Assembly: GCF_034669625.1 (NCBI RefSeq)
Contig: NZ_JAXMOY010000016.1
Coordinates: forward strand, 1,589 to 65,588
Length of the DNA: 64,000 nt
Source of the DNA: Marinobacter sp.
GTDB lineage: Bacteria > Pseudomonadota > Gammaproteobacteria > Pseudomonadales > Oleiphilaceae
Direction: 5' to 3'
The notes below the pieces were generated by a model. That model saw nothing but the letters and a program-made list of their open reading frames with translations, was not told the DNA's origin and did not search any database. Below, in pieces: positions 977-45,059 of the stretch. A program made the position numbers and the translations under genes. Numbering within the stretch: the first letter of the stretch is position 1; each line of letters opens with the position of its first letter.

Positions 977-1016
977 AAAAAAACCGCCTTTAGCGTAAGC
1001 TTCAGGCGGTTTTTTT
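977..1016. terminator. Bidirectional intrinsic terminator between convergent purA and cmoB
   Basis: AAAAAAACCGCCT...AGGCGGTTTTTTT, with an A7 run before and a T7 run after the stem. Confidence 0.9.
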
Positions 1017-2806: not shown

Positions 2807-3164
2807 CGCTATCCTCGACTTTAGGCTTTGCCGGGTCCCGGTCGGTTGGCGAGGGTCGGGCACAGCGTACGCCACGGTTCTTGTAATCCACCAGAACGCC
2901 GCGGAAGGACGGGTCTACGTCGGCAGCAATGGCAAGGTAGCCGTTTTCGCAGACTGCGTGCAGCTCTGAGGACTTTCGGGACATTCGGAACTCTTCGCCC
3001 GGATCCAGGTGAATGGCCTGAAAGTCGCCGACCGGAACGTGGTCTTTGTTGTCTGAATGCTTGATGCGGCCCCCGGCTTCCAGAGCCACCACGGTGCCGA
3101 TGATGGCGATAACCGCTGTCAGAATAAGGGCTCGCGTCGAATAGCGGCTTTCACTTTCGCTCAT
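2796..3164 (-). CDS. Small hypothetical protein with an N-terminal hydrophobic anchor or signal and two Cys
   Basis: 122 aa; RBS AAGAGG before ATG; hydrophobic ALILTAVIAIIGTVVAL; packed between srkA and cmoA on the same strand. Confidence 0.75.
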   Translation of the reverse strand: MSESESRYSTRALILTAVIAIIGTVVALEAGGRIKHSDNKDHVPVGDFQAIHLDPGEEFRMSRKSSELHAVCENGYLAIAADVDPSFRGVLVDYKNRGVRCARPSPTDRDPAKPKVEDSDEQ

Positions 3165-3183
3165 GTTTACCTCTTGTCAGTGT

Positions 3184-4203
3184 TCAGAATTGGCCTGGGA
3201 GCGCAAGAGCAGGCTCTTGCAGGGCCGAGAGTTGTTCGCGCAGGGAAAGGATCTGGTCGGACCAGAAGCGCGGTTGTGCAAACCACGGGAAAAACCGGGG
3301 GAAAGCCGGGTCTTCCCAGCGCCGCGCCAGCCAGGCACAGTGTGCGATTTGGCGGTAGCAGCGAAGTGGCTCGATCAGGTGACGTTCCCGACGATCAAAA
3401 TCCCGGAAGGTCTCATAGCCCTCGAGCAGTTCCCCGAGTTGGCTGCCCCGTTCGGTGAATTCACCGTTCAGAAGCAACCACATATCCTGAACGGCCGGGC
3501 CGGTGCGGCAGTCGTCCAGGTCGACAAACAGCATCGATTCATCTCGGCATAGAATATTGCCAGCATGGCAATCACCGTGGATTCGGAGCGTGGCGACGTC
3601 ACCGGCGTCGTCCATCCGTTGTTTGCAGCCAGCCATTAAATCCGGGATCAGGCTGTCCCAGGCCGGTCGCAGGTCATCAGGAATCCAGCCGCCGTTAATG
3701 AGTAGTGCGTTGTGTTCTTCCAGACCGTGAATCAGGTCAAACGTCGGGCGGTGTTCGAATGATTTGGTTGCGCCCAGGTTGTGGATCTGGCCCAACCATT
3801 GGCCAAGACGATAGAGCGTGTCGGGGATGCTGGTGTCTGGGGCTTGTCCACCGCGCTGAGGGAAAACGGCGAACCGGAACTCGCCATGGCGACCCAGCGA
3901 GTTACCGTTGTTCAGCGACAGTGGGGCGACCACGGGAATGTCTGCGGCCTGAAGGTCGAGTGTGAACTCGTGTTCTTCACGGATGGCAGCATCAGACCAG
4001 CGGCCAGGGCGATAGAACTTCGCGATGACCGGAGGGCCTTCGTCCAGCCCGATCTGATACACCCGGTTTTCATAACTGTTCAGGGCAAAGAGTCGTCCAC
4101 TGACGGCAAAGCCGGCTTCTTCCAAGGCGTCGAGAATGGTTTCCGGCGTCAGAGTGTCGTACGGATGGGTAGAAGCAGTTATGTCAGAAGGCTCATGTTG
4201 CAT
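3184..4203 (-). CDS. srkA: Stress response Ser/Thr kinase SrkA (RdoA/YihE family)
   Basis: ALNSYENRVY, IAKFYRP, HGDCHAGNIL and FVDLDD motifs. Confidence 0.93.
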   Translation of the reverse strand: MQHEPSDITASTHPYDTLTPETILDALEEAGFAVSGRLFALNSYENRVYQIGLDEGPPVIAKFYRPGRWSDAAIREEHEFTLDLQAADIPVVAPLSLNNGNSLGRHGEFRFAVFPQRGGQAPDTSIPDTLYRLGQWLGQIHNLGATKSFEHRPTFDLIHGLEEHNALLINGGWIPDDLRPAWDSLIPDLMAGCKQRMDDAGDVATLRIHGDCHAGNILCRDESMLFVDLDDCRTGPAVQDMWLLLNGEFTERGSQLGELLEGYETFRDFDRRERHLIEPLRCYRQIAHCAWLARRWEDPAFPRFFPWFAQPRFWSDQILSLREQLSALQEPALALPGQF

Positions 4204-4754: not shown

Positions 4755-5864
4755 GTGAGTTACGAAAGCTACAAAGTGCAAACGGTGGTTGTTGGCGCCG
4801 GGGTGGTGGGGTTGGCGGTTGCCCGGGCGCTTGCCCAGTCAGGGCGCGACGTCCTGGTCCTCGAAGCAGGCGCCAGATTTGGCGAGGGTATTTCTTCCCG
4901 AAATAGCGAAGTGATTCACGCGGGTATCTATTACCCCAGGGATTCCCTGAAAGCGTCGTTTTGTGTTCGGGGCCGCGAGCTGCTCTACGAGTATTGCGTC
5001 ACTCGGAAGGTGGAGCACCGTAAGTGCGGGAAATGGATCGTTGCTACCGACGATCGTCAGGCGTCGAGGCTGGAGGCCATTTGCCGGCAAGCTGAAGGTA
5101 ATGGCGTGAGCTTGCAACAGGTTACCGGCGATGCAGTGAACGCGCAGTGCCTCGATATACGGGCCTTTGCTGGGTTGTGGTCACCTGAGACCGGCATCAT
5201 CGATAGCCACGGTTTGATGCTATCGATGCTGGGTGAGCTGGAAGATGCCGGCGGGCAACTGGTACTAAACAGCCCGGTTCTTGCTGCAGATAGCTCACCC
5301 GATGGCCATCGGCTCACGGTCGGTGGAGATGCTCCGGTCACCTTGATGGCCAGTGAAGTGGTGAATGCAGCAGGGTTGGGGGCGCCGGGTCTTACCCAAG
5401 GCTGGTCGGGTCTGCCTGACAGTGCCAAGCCAGAACAGTGGTTAGCCCGAGGCGTATATTTCAGTTATAGCGGCAAGCACCCATTCAATCAGTTGATCTA
5501 CCCCTTGCCGGAACCGGGCGGGCTTGGCGTTCACCTGACGTTGGATTTAGCCGGGCAGGCCCGCTTTGGGCCAGATGTTGAGTGGATTGAAACGGAGAAT
5601 TACACCGTGGATCCAAATCGGATGCAGGCTTTTGTAGAGGGCATTCGCCAGTGGTGGCCATCGCTCGATGCGAGTCGGCTACAGCCCGCTTATGCTGGCA
5701 TTCGGCCCAAGCTGGCCGGGCCTGAGGACGGCTTTGCTGACTTCCGGATCGATGGGCCTGAGGACCATGGGGTGTCGGGACTGGTTCATCTTTTTGGCAT
5801 TGAGTCGCCTGGCCTGACCTCTTGCTTGGCCATCGCTGATTTTGTAAAACAGAAGTTGGGTTAA
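4755..5864 (+). CDS. FAD-dependent oxidoreductase, L-2-hydroxyglutarate oxidase (LhgO)-like family
   Basis: VVVGAGVVGLA Rossmann motif, SSRNSEVIHAGIYY, GLGVHLTLD and GIESPGLTS. Confidence 0.88.
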   Translation: MSYESYKVQTVVVGAGVVGLAVARALAQSGRDVLVLEAGARFGEGISSRNSEVIHAGIYYPRDSLKASFCVRGRELLYEYCVTRKVEHRKCGKWIVATDDRQASRLEAICRQAEGNGVSLQQVTGDAVNAQCLDIRAFAGLWSPETGIIDSHGLMLSMLGELEDAGGQLVLNSPVLAADSSPDGHRLTVGGDAPVTLMASEVVNAAGLGAPGLTQGWSGLPDSAKPEQWLARGVYFSYSGKHPFNQLIYPLPEPGGLGVHLTLDLAGQARFGPDVEWIETENYTVDPNRMQAFVEGIRQWWPSLDASRLQPAYAGIRPKLAGPEDGFADFRIDGPEDHGVSGLVHLFGIESPGLTSCLAIADFVKQKLG

Positions 5865-6589
5865 CCCGGTGTGCGAGCCAAGGCCCAAATTTGAATGTCG
5901 CGCGCTCCAGCCTCGGTTAATGCCCGGGCCAGAGCCCGAGAGGTAGCACCGGTTGTTACCACGTCGTCGATTATGGCGACCCGTTCCGGCATCGGGGTGC
6001 AAACCTCAAACACCTTGTTCAGATTCGTTAGGCGCTCGGTTCTGTTAAGGCCTCTTTGCGCGTGCACCTGCCGTCTTCGCCGAACGGTTTTGCTTCCTAC
6101 CGGGATCTTCAGGCGAGCCCCCACATATTCTGCAATGTCCTGTGACTGGTTGAAACCGCGCTGCCATCGGCGCAGCCAATGCATGGGCGCGGGAACCAAC
6201 AGCTCCGGACGTTCGGAGTCAGTCAGTGTTTGTTCCAGATAGTCGCTGAAATCAGCCAGCAGGGGCCGCGCGAATTTGCGTTGGCCATGGTATTTGTAGC
6301 GGCCGATCATGCTGTCGACCGGGAACTGGTAGCGCCAAGGGATCAACGAACGTGTGAAGGGTGGTGGATGCGCCAGGCATTCGCCACAGAGCCTGACGGG
6401 GCCTGCAAAAGCCAGGGGGAGGGCGCAGGTGTCGCAGTGCAGCCGGTTGTGTGGAAGGTCTGCTCGGCAGGCCGTGCAGAGGCCTTGATTGGCCGGCGTA
6501 TCGAGGCAGGTAACACAGCGACCTGCTGTAGCTTCGCTGTTAACCAATTTGCCTAGATAGGTTGACAGCGGTTTTAGTCTGTTTATCAT
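5861..6589 (-). CDS. comF: ComF/GntX family phosphoribosyltransferase-like protein with Zn-finger N-terminus
   Basis: CxxC pairs, RGFNQS, IIDDVVTTGAT PRTase loop, IWALART; divergent from bioB. Confidence 0.92.
   Translation of the reverse strand: MINRLKPLSTYLGKLVNSEATAGRCVTCLDTPANQGLCTACRADLPHNRLHCDTCALPLAFAGPVRLCGECLAHPPPFTRSLIPWRYQFPVDSMIGRYKYHGQRKFARPLLADFSDYLEQTLTDSERPELLVPAPMHWLRRWQRGFNQSQDIAEYVGARLKIPVGSKTVRRRRQVHAQRGLNRTERLTNLNKVFEVCTPMPERVAIIDDVVTTGATSRALARALTEAGARDIQIWALARTPG
6562..6589 (+). promoter_or_regulatory. Probable sigma70 promoter for the bio operon, lying inside the 5' end of comF
   Basis: TTGACA (6562-6567), 16 bp spacer, TATCAT (6584-6589). Confidence 0.65.
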
Positions 6590-6600
6590 CGTGGTTTATC

Positions 6601-6630: not shown

Positions 6631-6640
6631 GGACTTGAAC

Positions 6641-7699
6641 ATGACCGCTACTGCGCTGCGCCACGACTGGAGCCTTCAGGAGGCTCAAGAGCTTTTTCAT
6701 CTCCCGTTTAATGATCTCTTGTTCCGTGCCCAGTCGGTGCATCGAGAGCATTTTGATCCTAATGAGGTTCAGGTTAGCACTCTACTGTCCATCAAAACCG
6801 GTGCTTGCCCTGAGGATTGTAAATACTGCCCTCAGAGCGGCCATTACAACACAGGCCTAGAGAAAGAGAAGCTTCTGGAAATTGAAAAAGTGGTCGCGGA
6901 AGCACAGGCGGCTAAGCAGAAAGGCGCTTCACGGTTCTGTATGGGCGCGGCTTGGCGCAGCCCCTCAAAGAAAGATATGCCGTACGTATTGGACATGGTT
7001 CAGCAGGTCAAATCGCTGGGTCTGGAAACCTGTATGACGCTGGGCATGTTGAAAGAGGAAGAGGCTCAGGAGTTGGCCGAAGCGGGTCTGGATTATTACA
7101 ACCATAACTTGGACACCTCGGAGAAGTACTACAGCCACATCATTACCACGCGCACCTATCAGGACCGCTTGGATACGCTGGATAACGTGCGCAAGGCCGG
7201 GATGAAGGTTTGCTGCGGCGGGATTCTGGGTATGGGCGAGGATGAGGAGGATCGCGTTGGTTTGTTGGTTCAGTTGGCGAACTTGCCGCAGCATCCTGAG
7301 AGTGTGCCGGTGAATATGTTGGTGAAGGTGAAGGGCACGCCGTTGGAAGATGTGGAGGATCTGGAACCGTTTGATTTTATCCGGATGATTGCGGTGGCGC
7401 GGATTATGATGCCGGCGTCTCATGTTCGGCTGTCGGCCGGTCGTGAGCAGATGAATGAGCAGATGCAGTCGCTGTGTTTCCTAGCTGGTGCGAATTCGAT
7501 TTTCTACGGAGAGAAGTTGCTGACGACCTCTAATCCGGAGGCGGATGCGGATATGCAGTTGTTCCGCAAACTGGGGATTCGTCCCGAGCAGCGTGAGCAG
7601 TGTGCGACTGAGGAGCAGCAGGGAGAGGTGCTTGCTGAGGCTGTCGAGTATGAGGCTACCCGTCATATGTTTTATGACGCTACTCGGGAATCTGCCTAA
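6641..7699 (+). CDS. bioB: Biotin synthase
   Basis: [11 protein letters not shown] radical SAM motif, YNHNLDT, PESVPVN, RLSAGRE, AGANSIF; ATG 6641 follows an AGGA RBS. Confidence 0.98.
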
Positions 7700-7718: not shown

Positions 7719-7828
7719 GTGAAGGTCTGGTGTTGCTTTTCGGGACACGCTACGAGCACATCCATGTGCGCTTGTTTCAGGCCGTCCTTGGCCTTCAACA
7801 GTCCCGAAAAGCAGCGCCAGACCTTCAC
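7719..7828. repeat. Dispersed palindromic element, copy 1 (28 bp arms, two-hairpin core)
   Basis: Arms 7719-7746 and 7801-7828 match 26/28; core GCACATCCATGTGC and AGGCCGTCCTTGGCCT, similar to copies 2-4. Confidence 0.92.
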
Positions 7829-7912: not shown

Positions 7913-9100
7913 ATGCGTGATTTTGCACTTGAGATAGAACAACGGAAACAGGCAGGCCTGTATCGAACCCGCCGTTTGGTTTCTGGCCCGCAACAGCCGG
8001 AGTTAATCGCGGATGGTCAGGCGTTGCTGTCGTTCTGTAGCAACGATTATCTGGGTCTCGCCAATCACCCTCAAAACATAGATGCGCTCAAGAGTGCCTT
8101 GCCGGAGACCGGGCTCGGCGGGGCCGCTTCACATCTTGTCTGTGGTCATCACGATGCTCATCACCGCTTGGAGCAGCGGTTGGCTGACTTTGCCCAGCGC
8201 AGTAGCGCATTGTTTTTTTCCACCGGTTATATGGCGAATGTTGGTGTGCTTTCAGCGTTGGTGGGGCGGGGCGATACGGTTTTTTCGGATCGGCTAAATC
8301 ATGCCTCTATCATCGATGGCTGTATTCTCAGCCGGGCCCGGGTTCGGCGTTATGCGCACGGGGATGTTGCGGCGCTGGGAGCTATGTTGGCTGACACTTC
8401 GGGTCACAAGGTGGTGGTGACCGACGGGGTCTTCAGCATGGACGGCGATGTGGCGCCGTTGAAAGCATTAGCTCGAGTCTGCAAGGCCCACGATGCGTTG
8501 TTGGTGGTGGATGACGCCCACGGTATCGGTGTGTTGGGGCCGCAGGGTCGCGGAAGTGTGCTGGAAGCGGGCTTGTCGGAGGATGAGGTGCCGGTTCTGA
8601 TTGGCACCTTGGGTAAGGCTGTGGGCACCAGTGGTGCGTTTGTAGCTGGGCCGGCAGTACTGATGGACTATCTGGTCCAGAAGGCCCGAACATACATCTA
8701 CACAACGGCTATGCCGCCGGCGATGGCGATTGCGACCTGTGCCAGTCTGGATCTGATCGAGGCCGATGATCAAAGGCGGGCCCATTTGAATGAGTTGATT
8801 GTGCGTTTTCGAGAGGGCGCGCAAGCGCTGGGTTATGAGTTGATGCCGTCTTATATGCCCATTCAGCCGATTATGATTGGTGGCAATGAGGAGGCGTTGG
8901 CGTTGAGTCAGGCGCTGGAGCAACAGGGCGTTATGGTGACGGCAATTCGGCCGCCAACGGTGCCCGAGGGGCAGGCTCGGCTTCGGGTGACTTTGAGCGC
9001 TTCGCATACCCGAGAGCATGTCGATCAATTGCTGGCAGCTCTGTCGGGTTGTCGGGGGTTGCTCGCGGCATGTGATTCCGGGCAGGTGGTGGCCGGATGA
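7913..9100 (+). CDS. bioF: 8-amino-7-oxononanoate synthase
   Basis: SNDYLGL, DRLNHAS, DGVFSMDGD, DDAHG, GTLGKA (PLP lysine) and AIRPPTVP motifs. Confidence 0.97.
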   Translation: MRDFALEIEQRKQAGLYRTRRLVSGPQQPELIADGQALLSFCSNDYLGLANHPQNIDALKSALPETGLGGAASHLVCGHHDAHHRLEQRLADFAQRSSALFFSTGYMANVGVLSALVGRGDTVFSDRLNHASIIDGCILSRARVRRYAHGDVAALGAMLADTSGHKVVVTDGVFSMDGDVAPLKALARVCKAHDALLVVDDAHGIGVLGPQGRGSVLEAGLSEDEVPVLIGTLGKAVGTSGAFVAGPAVLMDYLVQKARTYIYTTAMPPAMAIATCASLDLIEADDQRRAHLNELIVRFREGAQALGYELMPSYMPIQPIMIGGNEEALALSQALEQQGVMVTAIRPPTVPEGQARLRVTLSASHTREHVDQLLAALSGCRGLLAACDSGQVVAG

Positions 9101-24002: not shown

Positions 24003-24472
24003 GAGTCTGTTTCCGTTTCCTCTGCTTCGTAAGGGTTGGCAAACCCGAGCTGCGCAAGCAGCTGGATTTCGAGGCCTTCCATAACCTCGGCATCACTGTC
24101 TTCAATATGGTCGTAACCCTGAAGGTGCAGCATGCCGTGTATTACCATATGAGCCCAGTGGGCCGCAGGTTGTTTATGCTGCTCTTGGGCTTCTTTTTCA
24201 ACAACCGGCGCGCAAATAACAAGATCACCGGCCAGAGGAAATGTTATACCCGCTGGTGCTTCAAATGGAAAGGACAAAACATTGGTGGGTTTGTCCTTTT
24301 CACGGTACTGAAGGTTCAGAGTCTGGCTTTCTTCGACGTCAACGATGCGAATCGTAACCTCGGACTCATCTTCGCCTTGCCAAGCGAGTTCCGCCCAAGC
24401 CTGAAAGCTGGACTCGTCGGGTAGCCCTTCGCCTTCAAACGCATTCTGGAAATCGACCGTCAACTGACTCAT
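23999..24472 (-). CDS. ybeY: rRNA maturation factor YbeY
   Basis: [10 protein letters not shown] and [11 protein letters not shown] zinc motif. Confidence 0.97.
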
Positions 24473-25455
24473 GAGCGTGGGTCACTTCCATCGTTGAATG
24501 AATCGTAAGCTTCGACGATACGCTGAACCAAGGGGTGGCGAACCACGTCTTTTGATTCGAAACGGGTAAACCCGATGCCTCTTACGTTGTTTAGAACGCC
24601 GGCAGCATGAATAAGTCCCGAGTCCTGTCCGCGTGGCAAGTCCACCTGTGTGGTGTCACCGGTAATGACAGCAGTAGAACCAAACCCGATCCGGGTCAGG
24701 AACATTTTCATTTGTTCCCGAGTGGTGTTCTGGCTTTCATCGAGAATTATAAAGGAGTTGTTGAGCGTACGACCACGCATAAACGCCAAGGGCGCAATCT
24801 CGATCACACTTTTCTCGATTAACCGAGTGGTTTGCTCAAACCCGAGCATTTCGTAAAGGGCGTCATAAAGCGGCCGCAGGTACGGGTCTACTTTCTGGGC
24901 AAGGTCACCCGGCAGGAAGCCCAGCTTTTCGCCGGCTTCGACGGCAGGACGTACCAGCAGAATGCGTTTTACCTGCTCGTCTTTCAAAGCCTCAACGGCG
25001 CAGGCCACCGCCAACCAGGTTTTGCCCGTGCCCGCAGGCCCGATACCGAAGTTGATGTCGTGGGTTCGAACGCTGTGCACATACTTCTGCTGGTTCTGGC
25101 CCCGGGGCTTGGCGGTCAGTTTGGGAGTTTTGATAACCGTGATTTGCCCTTCATTGTAGGGCACCTCGTCCGGCAGCCTTTCCAGCCCGGTTTCCCGAAT
25201 GAACAGGTGCACGGTATCCGGCTGAATATCGTCCACGGCTTCGGTTTCCCGGTACATATGACGAATAACTTCCGTGGCAGCAGCGACGTTTTCAGTTGCC
25301 CCTTCAACCCGGAAGTGATGGCCGCGGCGGCCAACTTTTACCTGTAGACGCTTTTCGATCATCTTCAGGTGTTCATCAAATTGCCCGCACAGCGTGGTGA
25401 GCCTTCGCTGGTCTACGGGGTGAAGGTCAAATTGTCTGCTGTCTTGAGTGTTCAA
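24469..25455 (-). CDS. ybeZ: PhoH-like ATPase
   Basis: [35 protein letters not shown] and DVVRHPLV; TTG start after GGAG. Confidence 0.96.
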
Positions 25456-25557: not shown

Positions 25558-25672
25558 CTTTGTTTAAATAATGTGCAGGCTCGATAAAGAAAAACAAGTG
25601 TAGGCCTATTACCCTTTTGCGGTTTCAGGTCTTTGAATTTCTTTCATGCCATCGTGAAGCTGGGAGGAGATA

Positions 25673-25773
25673 GGTTGGTGAGACCTCCAAAAAATGTGCG
25701 GAGCCATGGATGGCGGAGCAGAAGCGCCACATGGATGTGCCAAAGGAACGGTTTTTGGGAGGCCTCACCAACC
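25673..25773. repeat. Dispersed palindromic element, copy 2
   Basis: Arms GGTTGGTGAGACCTCCAAAAA and TTTTTGGGAGGCCTCACCAACC; core GCCATGGATGGC and CACATGGATGTG; outer TGGGAGG/CCTCCCA extends the pairing. Confidence 0.92.
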
Positions 25774-25814
25774 CGCCTCCCATCCCCAAGCCCCCAACAC
25801 ATGGGAGCCAAAAC

Positions 25815-27161
25815 TCAATACATCGCCGAATCCACAGGCACGCCACGCAAAGAGTTTGCGTAAGCCTCGACAATCTCCACATCGACAAAGTGGCCAACGA
25901 TCTCCGGGTTGTCGTGGCGGAAGTTCACAATCCGGTTGTTCTCGGTACGGCCTGAATACTCACCAGGATCTTTCTTGGAAAGCCCGGTTACCAGAATGCG
26001 CTGAGTCGAACCGACCATCTTGCGACTGATATCCATCACTGTCTGGTTGATACGATCTTGCAGGATCTTCAGGCGCTGCTTCTTCACTTCCATCGGCGTA
26101 TCGTCAGGCAGATCGGCTGCCGGAGTACCCGGGCGGGCGCTATAAACGAAACTGAACGACATATCAAAGCCGATGTCGTTGATCAGCTTCATGGTGTCTT
26201 CGAAGTCTTTTTCGGTTTCACCGGGGAAACCAATAATGAAATCGGAAGAGAAGCTGATGTCCGGGCGAATCTTGCGCAAACGGCGCAGCTTGGATTTGTA
26301 CTCCAACGCTGTGTGGCCGCGCTTCATGGCCGCTAGAATGCGGTCGGAACCGCTTTGCACCGGCAAGTGCAGGTGGCTGACCAGCTCGGGTACCCGCTCG
26401 TAAACTTCGATCAGCGAATCGCTGAATTCCACTGGATGAGAGGTGGTGTAGCGGATTCGGTCGATGCCATCGATGGTGGCGATCATTTCGACCAGTTCGG
26501 CCATGTCCATTACATCGCCATCGTGGGTTTCGCCACGATAGGCGTTTACGTTCTGACCCAGAAGATTGACTTCACGAACGCCTTGGCTAGCCAAGTGTGC
26601 GACTTCGGCTATGACATCGTCCACCGGGCGGCTGACTTCCTCTCCGCGGGTATAAGGCACCACGCAGAATGTGCAGTACTTGCTGCAGCCTTCCATAATG
26701 GAGACAAACGCGGAAGGACCGTCGGCTCCGGGGTCCGGCAGGTTGTCGAATTTTTCGATTTCCGGGAAGCTGACATCAACCACGCCAACGCCATTACCCT
26801 TGGCGCGCACTTCGGTGATCATGTCTGGCAGGCGGTGCAGGGTTTGCGGGCCGAAGACCATGTCGACAAACGGTGCCCGGTCGATGATGGCCTGACCTTC
26901 CTGGCTCGCCACGCAGCCGCCGACGCCGATGATGGTGTCGGGTTTATTGCTTTTGAGCTTTTTCCAACGGCCGAGTTGGTGGAACACTTTGTCCTGTGCT
27001 TTTTCACGGATGGAGCAGGTGTTCAGCAGCAGGATGTCGGCGTCCTCTGGTGAGTCGGTCATTTCGACGGGCTCGCCAGTTTTGAGTAAGTCTGCCATGC
27101 GGGCGGAGTCGTACTCGTTCATTTGGCAGCCGTGGGTTTTGATGTACAGCTTCTTGGCCAT
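25815..27161 (-). CDS. miaB: tRNA-2-methylthio-N6-dimethylallyladenosine synthase
   Basis: [39 protein letters not shown] and C-terminal TRAM domain; start at MAKKL. Confidence 0.98.
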
Positions 27162-27317
27162 GGGTCTCACGCGGTTTGGTGTATGTTGCGCCGGATGTGG
27201 TGTTTTGGCGCTGGCAAAAATTGGACGGAGCATTATACCGGTGTGATTAAACTTCAACCACCGTTGTCTCGGTATTCCTTACCAAACACTGTGCTATTAT
27301 TTGCCGCTTTGGTGTTA

Positions 27318-27429
27318 GAAGGCTTTTGGGGTGGGTTTTCCAAAAACCGCTACGGGCACATTCATGTGCGCTTCTCTCCGGCCATCCATGGCCTACGAAT
27401 TTTTTGGAAAACCCACCCCAGAATCCTTC
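27318..27429. repeat. Dispersed palindromic element, copy 3
   Basis: 29 bp arms match 27/29; core GCACATTCATGTGC and GGCCATCCATGGCC. Confidence 0.92.
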
Positions 27430-27506: not shown

Positions 27507-28241
27507 ATGACCCCCGAACGCCTCGCCCGAATTAAACACATCCTCGACACCCGCCAACCAGACCTTCGGGTGCTGACCGATCAGGTGCATAAACCCAGAA
27601 ACCTGTCAGCCATCATTCGCTGCTGTGATGCCTTTGGGCTGGCCAATATGCATGTAGTGTGGCCGAAAGAAGGTTTTCGAGCGTTCAGGAAAACAGCCGG
27701 TGGCAGCTATCACTGGGTGACGACCCATACCCACCCGACCATGAAAGAGGCGGTGGCTGAGTTGAAAGGGCAGGGCCATAAAATCTACGCCGCGCAGTTG
27801 TCGGACCGGGCAGTGGATTTTCGGGAAGTGGATTTCACCGTGCCCTGTACGATTGTGATGGGCAATGAAGTGGACGGAGTGAACCCGGTTACCGCAGAGC
27901 AGGCAGATGAGCACATCGTGGTGCCGATGATGGGGATGGTGGAATCGCTGAACGTGTCGGCGGCCTGCTCAATCATCCTGTCGGAAGCTCAGAGGCAACG
28001 GAAACTGGCGGGGATGTTTGATCAGCGGCGGATGCCGGATGATGAATACAACCGCCTGCTGTTCTCCTGGTGCCAGCCCACGGTGAAACGATACTGCGAC
28101 GACCGAAACCTGCCGTATCCACCCATAGATCACGAAACCGGCGACTTGATCGATGGCGTAGGGTGGATGCAGGATGTCCGAAAGCTAAGAGCCAACCGCC
28201 CCAGATGGGACGATGAAAAAGAGCCAGTAGCAGAAGAGTAA
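27507..28241 (+). CDS. trmH: tRNA (guanosine(18)-2'-O)-methyltransferase
   Basis: RQPDL, HKPRNLSAIIR, KTAGGS, MGNEVDG and ESLNVSAA SPOUT motifs. Confidence 0.92.
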   Translation: MTPERLARIKHILDTRQPDLRVLTDQVHKPRNLSAIIRCCDAFGLANMHVVWPKEGFRAFRKTAGGSYHWVTTHTHPTMKEAVAELKGQGHKIYAAQLSDRAVDFREVDFTVPCTIVMGNEVDGVNPVTAEQADEHIVVPMMGMVESLNVSAACSIILSEAQRQRKLAGMFDQRRMPDDEYNRLLFSWCQPTVKRYCDDRNLPYPPIDHETGDLIDGVGWMQDVRKLRANRPRWDDEKEPVAEE

Positions 28242-39327: not shown

Positions 39328-39340
39328 CTTTGGTGCTTTC

Positions 39341-39412
39341 GGTCCTAGCCTGCTGTTTTTTGGGGAGGGGGCTAAAAGCCGCCCCCTCCCCATAATCTCT
39401 CAGGCTGGGGCC
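39341..39412. repeat. Nested 72-nt hairpin (REP-like) between the convergent LysR gene and gatB
   Basis: Inner TGGGGAGGGGGC/GCCCCCTCCCCA perfect 12 bp; outer GGTCCTAGCCTG/CAGGCTGGGGCC 12 bp with G-U pairs. Confidence 0.7.
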
Positions 39413-39442
39413 TAAGTTAAAGACCCCTGCCAAAGCTAGCCG

Positions 39443-42435: not shown

Positions 42436-42723
42436 TCACTCAATAACTTTGGGAACCAAGTACAACCCATCCTCGGTCGCCGGCGCAATCGCTTGAAACG
42501 CTTCCCGCTGATTGGTCTCAGTGACCTCGTCTGCGCGCAATCGCTGAACGGCATCCAGAGGGTGCGCCATGGGCTCCACCGCGTCGGTATCCGCCGCACT
42601 TAACTGATCTACCAGATCCAGAATGTTGCCCAGATCCTCCTCCAGAGCCGAAACCTGCTCGTCATCCACTTTGATGCGGGCGAGCACGGCAACTTTTTCA
42701 ATGTCCGCGCGGGAAATGCTCAT
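42436..42723 (-). CDS. gatC: Asp/Glu-tRNA amidotransferase subunit C
   Basis: 95 aa; VAVLARI, EPMAHP, RLRAD and YLVPKVIE. Confidence 0.96.
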   Translation of the reverse strand: MSISRADIEKVAVLARIKVDDEQVSALEEDLGNILDLVDQLSAADTDAVEPMAHPLDAVQRLRADEVTETNQREAFQAIAPATEDGLYLVPKVIE

Positions 42724-42818: not shown

Positions 42819-42931
42819 GATGCCTTGGGGAACTGCTTTCCAAAAATTTCCGGAGCCATGGGTGGCGGAGCTGAAGCGCCACATGGAAGTGCCGAAGGAG
42901 CGGTTTTTGGAAAGCAGTTCCCCAAGGCATC
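42819..42931. repeat. Dispersed palindromic element, copy 4 (perfect 28 bp arms)
   Basis: GATGCCTTGGGGAACTGCTTTCCAAAAA and its exact reverse complement at 42904-42931; core GCCATGGGTGGC and CACATGGAAGTG. Confidence 0.93.

Positions 42932-43066: not shown

Positions 43067-45059
<1,993 letters not shown>

Follow-up and report, generated by a model that had tools for sequence, protein, structure and literature searches.

A long-stemmed intergenic repeat of Marinobacter with two small GGA-loop hairpins, very probably a short-hairpin variant of the TwoAYGGAY RNA motif

The 64-kb stretch of Marinobacter sp. DNA analysed here, referred to as the window, contains four copies of an element of about 110 nt, all of them intergenic (Table 1; neighbouring genes were named by Pfam). 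They lie at the positions noted for them in a preliminary description, and their core pattern, AAGCG(N)CACATGNANGTGC, is matched four times in the window versus 0.00 times expected from shuffles; a profile search of the 64 kb found no fifth copy. A 55-nt core is common to the four copies and is enclosed by an outer stem, P1, whose arms are inverted repeats of 28–29 nt that are 83–100% complementary. The sequence of this stem differs from copy to copy, except for an inner CCAAAAA/TTTTTGG, and each copy is still self-complementary. The eight hairpin sequences quoted in the preliminary description are correct, and six of them fit CANGGANG, the loop GGA being broken in hairpin 2 of copy 3 (GAA) and in hairpin 1 of copy 4 (GGG). 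In copy 2, the element that had been flagged, the two loop GGAs are indeed separated by 22 nt. The count of five GGAs in its core is also right, but three of them look structural or are unconserved: two make up a symmetric internal loop of hairpin 1, closed by a C-G and a G-C pair, and the third follows hairpin 2, in the AAGGAGCG stretch that is specific to a sub-family. For half of the window copies, the flagged one included, the GGA strand is not the sense strand of the operon; in copies 1 and 2 it is antisense, and the operon mRNA would carry AUCCAU loops at these sites, and not AUGGAU.

Table 1. Positions, strands and neighbours of the four elements in the window
Feature	Position	GGA strand	Remarks
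Copy 1	7719-7828	(-)	P1 arms 7719-7746 and 7801-7828
Copy 1, hairpin 1	7781-7792	(-)	
Copy 1, hairpin 2	7757-7768	(-)	
Copy 1, neighbours	bioB 6635-7699 (+), bioF 7913-9100 (+)		GGA strand antisense to operon
Copy 2 (flagged element), refined limits	25661-25782	(+)	P1 arms 25661-25694 and 25752-25782
Copy 2, hairpin 1	25703-25714	(+)	GCCAUGGAUGGC, GGA 25708-25710
Copy 2, hairpin 2	25728-25739	(+)	CACAUGGAUGUG, GGA 25733-25735; preceded by conserved AAGCG
Copy 2, neighbours	miaB 25815-27257 (-), phoH 24469-25455 (-)		GGA strand antisense to operon
Copy 3	27318-27429	(-)	P1 arms 27318-27346 and 27401-27429
Copy 3, hairpin 1	27381-27392	(-)	
Copy 3, hairpin 2	27357-27368	(-)	Loop GAA, not GGA
Copy 3, neighbours	miaB (-), SpoU-type methylase 27507-28241 (+)		Divergent region; GGA strand sense toward miaB
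Copy 4	42819-42931	(+)	P1 arms 42819-42846 and 42904-42931, 28/28 paired
Copy 4, hairpin 1	42855-42866	(+)	Loop GGG, not GGA
Copy 4, hairpin 2	42880-42891	(+)	
Copy 4, neighbours	gatC 42436-42723 (-), mreB 43118-44161 (+)		Divergent region; GGA strand sense toward mreB

The four elements belong to an intergenic repeat that is abundant in Marinobacter and consists of a long hairpin bearing two small ones with GGA in their loops. The earlier proposal of a dispersed repeat family was thus borne out beyond the window: when species-representative genomes were scanned with the core pattern, the same element was present in dozens of Marinobacter species among the matches listed. About 40 matches in Collinsella and scattered single ones in other phyla, also among the matches listed, were set aside as conserved coding sequence or chance. 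An nhmmer profile built from 64 seed copies gave 92 hits in 973 kb of fetched DNA, 88 of which are complete. The density in the window is of about one copy per 16 kb and, as the window is unbiased in this respect, would extrapolate to a few hundred copies per genome. Several sub-families can be told apart by their linkers and hairpin stems, and the one with a GGA/GGA internal loop includes copies 2 and 4. The same plan with the opposite hairpin order is found in Xanthomonadales and other Proteobacteria (loci L044, L058 and L105). The closest relative of the window among the fetched loci comes from Marinobacter sp. S0848L (L114), with 85–89% DNA identity over about 8 kb. A plasmid collection yielded no copy on a Marinobacter plasmid, its sole match being a weak one of 47 nt in Rhizobium, and a literature search found no description of the Marinobacter repeat.

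The structure was measured on an alignment of 79 copies, in which the GGA strand is predicted to fold as a three-way junction of P1, hairpin 1 and hairpin 2, with computed energies for the whole element of approximately -60 to -75 kcal/mol. P1 comprises 28 pairs (median length 28 bp), and 98.1% of its cells are paired, whereas controls in which the partner was slid reach only 35–47%. Double changes occur in 27 of the 28 pairs, most positions show all four Watson-Crick types, and the covariation score is 0.672 versus 0.169 in shuffles. The sequence of P1 is nevertheless partly constrained, with two semi-conserved stretches near the junction, a GGGG block and CUUUCC-AAAA(C/A). Hairpin 1, which comes first in the core, reads GCC-A-N-GGA-N-GGC, typically GCC-AUGGAU-GGC, and extends outward through a conserved non-canonical block, either tandem G.A or a symmetric 5'-GGA/5'-GGA loop, that is closed by covarying pairs (GC, CG and UA at columns 38-59). 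Hairpin 2 reads CAC-A-N-GGA-N-GUG, typically CAC-AUGGAU-GUG, and is framed by the conserved AAGCG and AGCG; in ten copies its stem has a covarying U-A pair in place of C-G.

The mismatches of P1 indicate which of the two strands folds. An A.C or C.A mismatch on one strand corresponds to a G.U wobble on the other, so that the two classes report on opposite strands. Read on the GGA strand, G.U and U.G account for 44 mismatches versus 7 of A.C and C.A (binomial p 1.2e-7), an excess found in sense (13:1), convergent (10:1) and antisense (9:4) contexts with respect to the flanking genes. This asymmetry points to the GGA strand as the folding, functional single strand across the family, and it rules out a purely double-stranded role. 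In agreement with it, RNAfold gives a more stable structure for the GGA strand in 74 of the 81 copies folded (mean energies -74.5 versus -70.0 kcal/mol); window copies 1-3 oppose the trend, as their complement folds equally well or better. The asymmetry fits folded single-stranded DNA, with G.T in place of G.U, as well as it fits RNA.

The loops were then the part of the element on which the preliminary description had rested its suggestion of CsrA/RsmA-type sites, together with a proposal to compare the GGA with the N positions. In that comparison, the fixed letters are far better conserved than both Ns, so that the outcome named there as refuting did not arise. The C, A, G, G, A and G of C-A-N-G-G-A-N-G are conserved in 95–100% of 85-88 copies, while U occupies the first loop N in 55% of them in hairpin 1 and in 85% in hairpin 2, the others having G or A, and the second N is U or C in 82 and 14% (hairpin 1) and in 61 and 32% (hairpin 2). 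The last loop position is a pyrimidine in about 93–97% of copies, and a minority of the copies read ARGGAY. Because the seed pattern itself fixed some of the loop letters, a profile with both hexaloops masked was also built. In the 21 copies that it adds outside the seed patterns, decayed ones included, the fixed letters are 81–100% conserved, N1 52% and N2 52–81%.

The CsrA/RsmE site is (A/U)CANGGANG(U/A), presented as an ANGGAN hexaloop with a closing C-G pair, and CsrA dimers are able to bridge two such sites, a loop spacing of about 24 nt being within the bridgeable range. The loops of the element have the same pattern of fixed and free positions as the CsrA/RsmE site. Conservation exceeds the CsrA consensus, as it extends to AAGCG, AGCG, the G.A block and the pyrimidine after GGA. 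CsrA is expressed in Marinobacter (PMC10516948). No csrA gene is present in the window or in the fetched loci, which amount to about 1 Mb of scattered DNA, a coverage at which this result is uninformative. Binding of CsrA by the element is plausible, although it is to be taken as a possibility somewhat short of an even call.

The preliminary description regarded the repeat as a candidate for an undescribed system, and this is not so, as the element is a sub-threshold relative of Rfam family RF01731, the TwoAYGGAY motif. In a permissive Rfam scan, the GGA strand of copies 2, 3 and 4 aligns to RF01731 from end to end with 23.4, 26.8 and 31.8 bits, respectively; the alignments cover both AYGGAY loops, P1 and the trailing CGG, and the match of copy 4 has the lowest E among the window copies (0.0024). 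Copy 1 has no RF01731 match up to E 10. The gathering score of the family is 43 bits, and at gathering thresholds Rfam calls nothing in the window, nor any of the roughly 40 copies contained in 18 Marinobacter loci. Generic miRNA-precursor matches also appear in the permissive scans and are artefacts, since any long perfect hairpin gives them. The TwoAYGGAY motif was described in 2010 (Weinberg et al., PMC2864571) from human gut metagenomes, Clostridia and gamma-proteobacteria, as a structure whose two terminal loops both read AYGGAY and whose P1 is 'often very large, e.g. 24 bp' (supplement to PMC2864571), and it was judged to be probably an RNA and not cis-regulatory. Its gamma-proteobacterial members are multiple copies in Psychromonas ingrahamii. 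In 2015 its loops were read as a CsrA-binding motif and sequestration of CsrA was proposed, tandem G.A pairs in one of its stems being mentioned as well (PMC4333381). A literature search found no experimental follow-up or binding data for any TwoAYGGAY RNA. A CsrA reading of the Marinobacter element would be a reasonable one, and it is already published for the parent family.

The likeness between the element and TwoAYGGAY covers two adjacent hairpins with CAUGGAUG in their terminal loops, a long closing P1 of variable sequence around both of them, a conserved CGG/GCG after the second hairpin, multiple copies in a gamma-proteobacterium, and the lack of a consistent gene in cis. Each also has a non-canonical G.A block in one stem, and the two blocks may correspond. 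In contrast to the Rfam model, the Marinobacter element measures about 110 nt instead of 168, its hairpins have 4-9 bp instead of 10 and 15 bp, and their order is reversed relative to the consensus, with the GCC-type hairpin ahead of the ACA-type one. In many loops the first N is G or A, so that they read ARGGAY, P1 is very uniform in length (28 bp), with the semi-conserved GGGG block and a CCAAAA/UUUUGG inner end, and the scores of 23-32 bits fall below the gathering score. The Marinobacter element is very probably a short-hairpin variant of the TwoAYGGAY RNA motif; it is filed as a variant and not called a member because of its shorter hairpins, the opposite hairpin order, the more regular P1 and the sub-threshold scores.

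Other known systems were compared with the repeat as well. The Csr/Rsm sponge sRNAs (CsrB, CsrC, RsmX/Y/Z and the Alteromonas Aln1a-c, PMC5864184) share with it the GGA in hairpin loops, with the site (A/U)CANGGANG(U/A), and paired sites spaced so that a single CsrA dimer could span them. These sponges, however, come from a small number of dedicated genes that possess a regulated promoter and a terminator of their own, and each RNA contains many GGA sites, whereas the Marinobacter element occurs about once every 16 kb, in either orientation, with two loop sites and a 28-bp enclosing stem. Rfam scans gave no match of the elements to any Csr/Rsm sRNA family, and an identity as a CsrB/RsmY-type sRNA gene was rejected, as the flanks contain no conserved promoter or Rho-independent terminator. 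REP, BIME and REPIN sequences resemble the element in being abundant intergenic hairpin repeats that lie mostly just downstream of genes, sometimes as inverted pairs, with a presence that varies between relatives and one strand distinguished from the other. REP/REPIN was rejected on anatomy, because their paired arms are conserved around a free centre, while in Marinobacter it is the centre that is conserved and the arms that vary; the GTAG-type tetranucleotide at the hairpin foot is also missing from the element. Integron attC sites are similar in that the structure of a long imperfect palindrome is kept while its sequence is free, and in that one strand is favoured as a folded single strand. 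An attC site was likewise rejected on anatomy: attC sites have conserved outer R''/R' boxes and a varying centre and form ordered cassette arrays next to intI, unlike the Marinobacter copies, which are placed among housekeeping genes in either orientation and have a conserved centre. A MITE was discarded, as the P1 termini differ in every copy and the longest flanking direct repeats match the null distribution, and so was an intrinsic terminator, no T-run following the hairpin on either strand and the scans having found none.

Gain and loss of copies can be followed between related loci. In one locus (L015) a copy lies between two convergent genes whose window counterparts overlap near 5860, which gives a filled and an empty version of the same site. 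In another (L119), two copies placed back to back occupy the site at which the window shows just a short palindrome (39338-39415); truncated copies exist too. For copies 2 and 3, the loci L041, L111 and L114 contain orthologues with unchanged site and orientation, those of copy 3 being in L114 and L041. Ten orthologous pairs were compared. The three closest show no double changes in P1. In five of the six more diverged ones, 9-13 of the 28 P1 pairs are doubly changed, with compensation, against 0-2 single changes, and the sixth (window copy 2 versus L041/L111) has 6 double changes in P1. The core is 68–96% identical in the more diverged pairs and diverges more slowly than the flanks, while P1 diverges at about the same rate as the flanks or faster. 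Either the pairing of P1 is under strong selection or its arms are corrected against each other. Target-site duplications showed no excess over permuted flanks, and the copies within one genome are not near-identical, so that there is no sign of a recent burst. Copies are gained, lost and left to decay like REP or MITE elements, and those that persist keep their core.

The orientation of the family was derived from rough greedy ORF calls, which left 70 classifiable copies. Relative to the flanking genes, the GGA strand is sense in 21 of them, antisense in 16, convergent in 23 and divergent in 10, with no orientation preference at the resolution of these calls, and 60 of the 70 lie downstream of at least one gene, often some 10-40 nt past its stop codon. 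Within 40 nt on either side of P1 there are no conserved promoter hexamers and no T-run; these flanks show only a weak C-rich/A-rich tail, and on neither strand is the downstream profile T-rich, C and A prevailing instead. Scans for consensus promoters and terminators around copies 3 and 4 found none. The lack of a conserved promoter or terminator indicates that the elements are not independent sRNA genes and, as they have no transcription signals of their own, they would, in any role as RNA, ride on neighbouring transcripts. A search for RNA-seq runs found none from this strain. Contigs from RNA libraries of related species contain cores of the element and unique P1 arms, but these contigs are unstranded and break at the repeat; some of these contigs reach 80-136 kb, which suggests that there is DNA in the library.

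The explanation that best accounts for the whole, uniting the family, the fold, a CsrA-type mechanism and the turnover, is proposed tentatively, as very nearly an even call. According to it, the element, devoid of a promoter of its own, would be transcribed within neighbouring transcripts, and the GGA-sense RNA would display two A-N-GGA-Y hexaloops, each closed by C-G and about 24 nt apart. One dimer of a protein that binds GGA hairpins, most likely CsrA, could then occupy both loops, with P1 acting as a scaffold that holds them in a fixed frame; being a perfect duplex of 28 bp, P1 might also be cut by RNase III. Depending on its location, a copy would give CsrA a local hold on the mRNA next to it or form part of a distributed CsrA sink, and persisting copies would keep their core while P1 drifts at a roughly neutral rate through compensated changes. 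That such a two-loop mechanism operates on neighbouring transcripts is a fair conjecture that may hold but is somewhat more apt to fail. It is weakened by the unbiased orientation, by the antisense placement of window copies 1 and 2, by the absent transcription signals and by the conservation beyond the CsrA consensus.

In a second reading, considered rather unlikely, the repeat is a REP-like element for the processing or stability of mRNA and its loops bind a factor other than CsrA. P1 would then be a barrier to 3'-exonucleases or an RNase III site in read-through transcripts, setting the relative expression of the neighbours, and the core would bind another protein or engage in loop-loop pairing with opposite-sense copies (AUGGAU with AUCCAU). 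The placement of 60 of the 70 classifiable copies behind at least one gene speaks for it, as do the two window copies that sit between genes of one operon and a P1 which, with 28 bp and 98% pairing, exceeds what a scaffold needs. The near equality of the orientations would bring both the GGA and the UCC versions of the loops into the RNA pool, and the conserved AAGCG, AGCG and G.A block are what the CsrA consensus leaves over. However, a pure stability role would neither conserve the loops at 95–100% nor favour one strand, the fixed and free positions are exactly those of the CsrA/RsmE site, and without a T-run the element is not an intrinsic terminator.

A third possibility, judged unlikely, is a mobile element that acts at the level of single-stranded DNA. 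The GGA strand would fold as ssDNA, for instance on the lagging-strand template, its two CATGGATG hairpins would be the recognition sites of an HUH/Y1-type transposase or recombinase (compare RAYT/REP and IS200/IS605), and the variable P1 would be kept perfect by templated correction from arm to arm and not by selection. In its favour, the changes in P1 are nearly all double, with hardly any single-change intermediates, the G.T versus A.C asymmetry comes without an orientation bias towards transcription, and the flanks have neither promoter nor terminator. Presence/absence polymorphism, truncated copies and back-to-back pairs are also in keeping with mobility, and a subset of the copies has CAGGCTAGG about 20 nt 3' of P1, which resembles an offset cleavage or target site. 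On the other hand, a non-systematic look noticed no transposase gene beside any copy, target-site duplications do not rise above the null, and the dissimilarity of the copies within one genome speaks against a recent burst. Orientation alternates within 64 kb with no obvious replication-strand bias, the tandem G.A block and the hexaloop architecture match an RNA motif family, and orthologous copies persist with a conserved core at flank identities down to about 65%, which suggests a constraint at the level of the host. Finally, a double-stranded DNA site for a DNA-binding protein, be it the palindrome itself or the paired CATGGATG boxes, which are direct repeats 24-25 bp (two helical turns) apart, is very improbable, as is a chance palindrome, given the strand-asymmetric wobbles (44 versus 7), the covarying hairpin stems, a P1 whose sequence is free while its pairing is kept, the 0.00 expected versus 4 observed matches and the conservation of the family across species. 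Part of the remaining probability belongs to combinations, because these readings are not mutually exclusive.

The CsrA-type mechanism has a more far-reaching form, in which each genome would hold a few hundred portable two-site CsrA modules that are embedded in ordinary mRNAs and excised by RNase III at P1; it is regarded as quite improbable. If it were true, the repeat would constitute a CsrA sink distributed over the genome, or a regulon of CsrA whose wiring comes from insertions of the element; either would depend on the transcriptional load and replace or supplement the classical sRNAs of CsrB/RsmY type. The copy-specific P1 would prevent cross-pairing and ectopic recombination between copies, and antisense transcripts of the element, with AUCCAU, could form loop-loop pairs with the sense ones. 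Should binding of CsrA be confirmed, dispersed repeats would represent a route by which CsrA control is spread over a genome. Most of the known TwoAYGGAY members come from gut metagenomes and Clostridia, and Marinobacter adds a tractable genus: it is a culturable gamma-proteobacterium with a canonical CsrA, which makes the CsrA hypothesis directly testable. The Rfam model misses this genus-wide branch of the TwoAYGGAY family. The repeat also shows with unusual clarity a 28-bp stem evolving at a roughly neutral rate and still 98% paired, and it therefore bears on the question of selection versus templated correction.

The window carries an empty site at ~5860 that is filled in L015, a locus fetched from another genome (1628-1794). 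Two convergent genes of the window, at 4755-5864 (+) and at 5861-6589 (-), share 4 nt, and in L015 there are ~165 nt more between them, including one copy of the family. Decayed or truncated copies are found at five further sites (L094 ~6557 and ~5504, L043 ~2066, L045 ~5870 and L092 ~6); examples are copies that keep only the 5' half of hairpin 2, the second of the two core hairpins, before they break off, and copies in which P1, the closing stem, is missing.

Copies frequently occur as back-to-back pairs in convergent intergenic regions, with their GGA strands diverging and a spacing of 180-290 bp (Table). Two of these pairs, those of L042 and L102, are orthologous and quite unlike in their P1 sequences. 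The inverted repeat that lies between convergent genes of the window has its orthologous region at L119 3085-3390, which harbors two back-to-back copies framed by the motif CCTAGCCTG...AGGCTAGG, and this motif is also present in the window repeat. Among the 81 family copies, about 20 also have CAGGCTAGG some 20 nt beyond the 3' end of P1, whereas all four window copies lack it there. Possible readings of it are a remnant, a target motif and the outer part of one sub-family.

Elements of the same plan, with two CAUGGAUG hairpins and a variable P1 of 20-25 bp, are found in Luteimonas, Pseudoxanthomonas and a further proteobacterial MAG (L044, L058 and L105), which suggests a wider super-family. 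Their first hairpin is the AAGCG-CACAUGGAUGUG one, an order shared with the Rfam TwoAYGGAY consensus. The sole match in the plasmid collection, 47 nt with 83% identity to the core of window copy 4, lies on the Rhizobium sp. BG4 replicon NZ_CP044126.1 (1002420-1002466) and may be another TwoAYGGAY-like element.

In window copies 1-3, at 7719-7828, 25661-25782 and 27318-27429, the UCC strand, complementary to the GGA strand, folds equally well or better, opposite to the family trend. Copy 1 has two C.A mismatches, which become G.U pairs if read on the sense strand of the operon.

Coordinates of paired copies, same-plan elements and neighboring features
Feature	Locus	Position	Remarks
Inverted repeat TTCGGTCCTAGCCTGCTGTTTTTTGGGGAGGGGGC / GCCCCCTCCCCATAATCTCTCAGGCTGGGGCCTAA	window	39338-39415	between convergent genes
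Back-to-back pair	L042	4742-5040	
Back-to-back pair	L102	1793-2093	
Back-to-back pair	L081	2515-2800	
Back-to-back pair	L032	4238-4636	
Back-to-back pair	L069	4911-5200	
Back-to-back pair	L068	7247-7610	
Same-plan element	L044	~5050-5230	
Same-plan element	L058	~10-200	
Same-plan element	L105	~3030-3220 of reverse complement	minus strand
Short G+C-rich hairpin AAAAAAACCGCCTTTAGC / GCTTCAGGCGGTTTTTTT	window	977-1016	flanking A-run and T-run

The short G+C-rich hairpin of the window resembles an intrinsic terminator that would work in both directions. L068, a locus of a Marinobacter MAG that has two family copies, also contains RNA domains of a group II intron (RF02001, RF01998 and RF00029) at 4796-6591.
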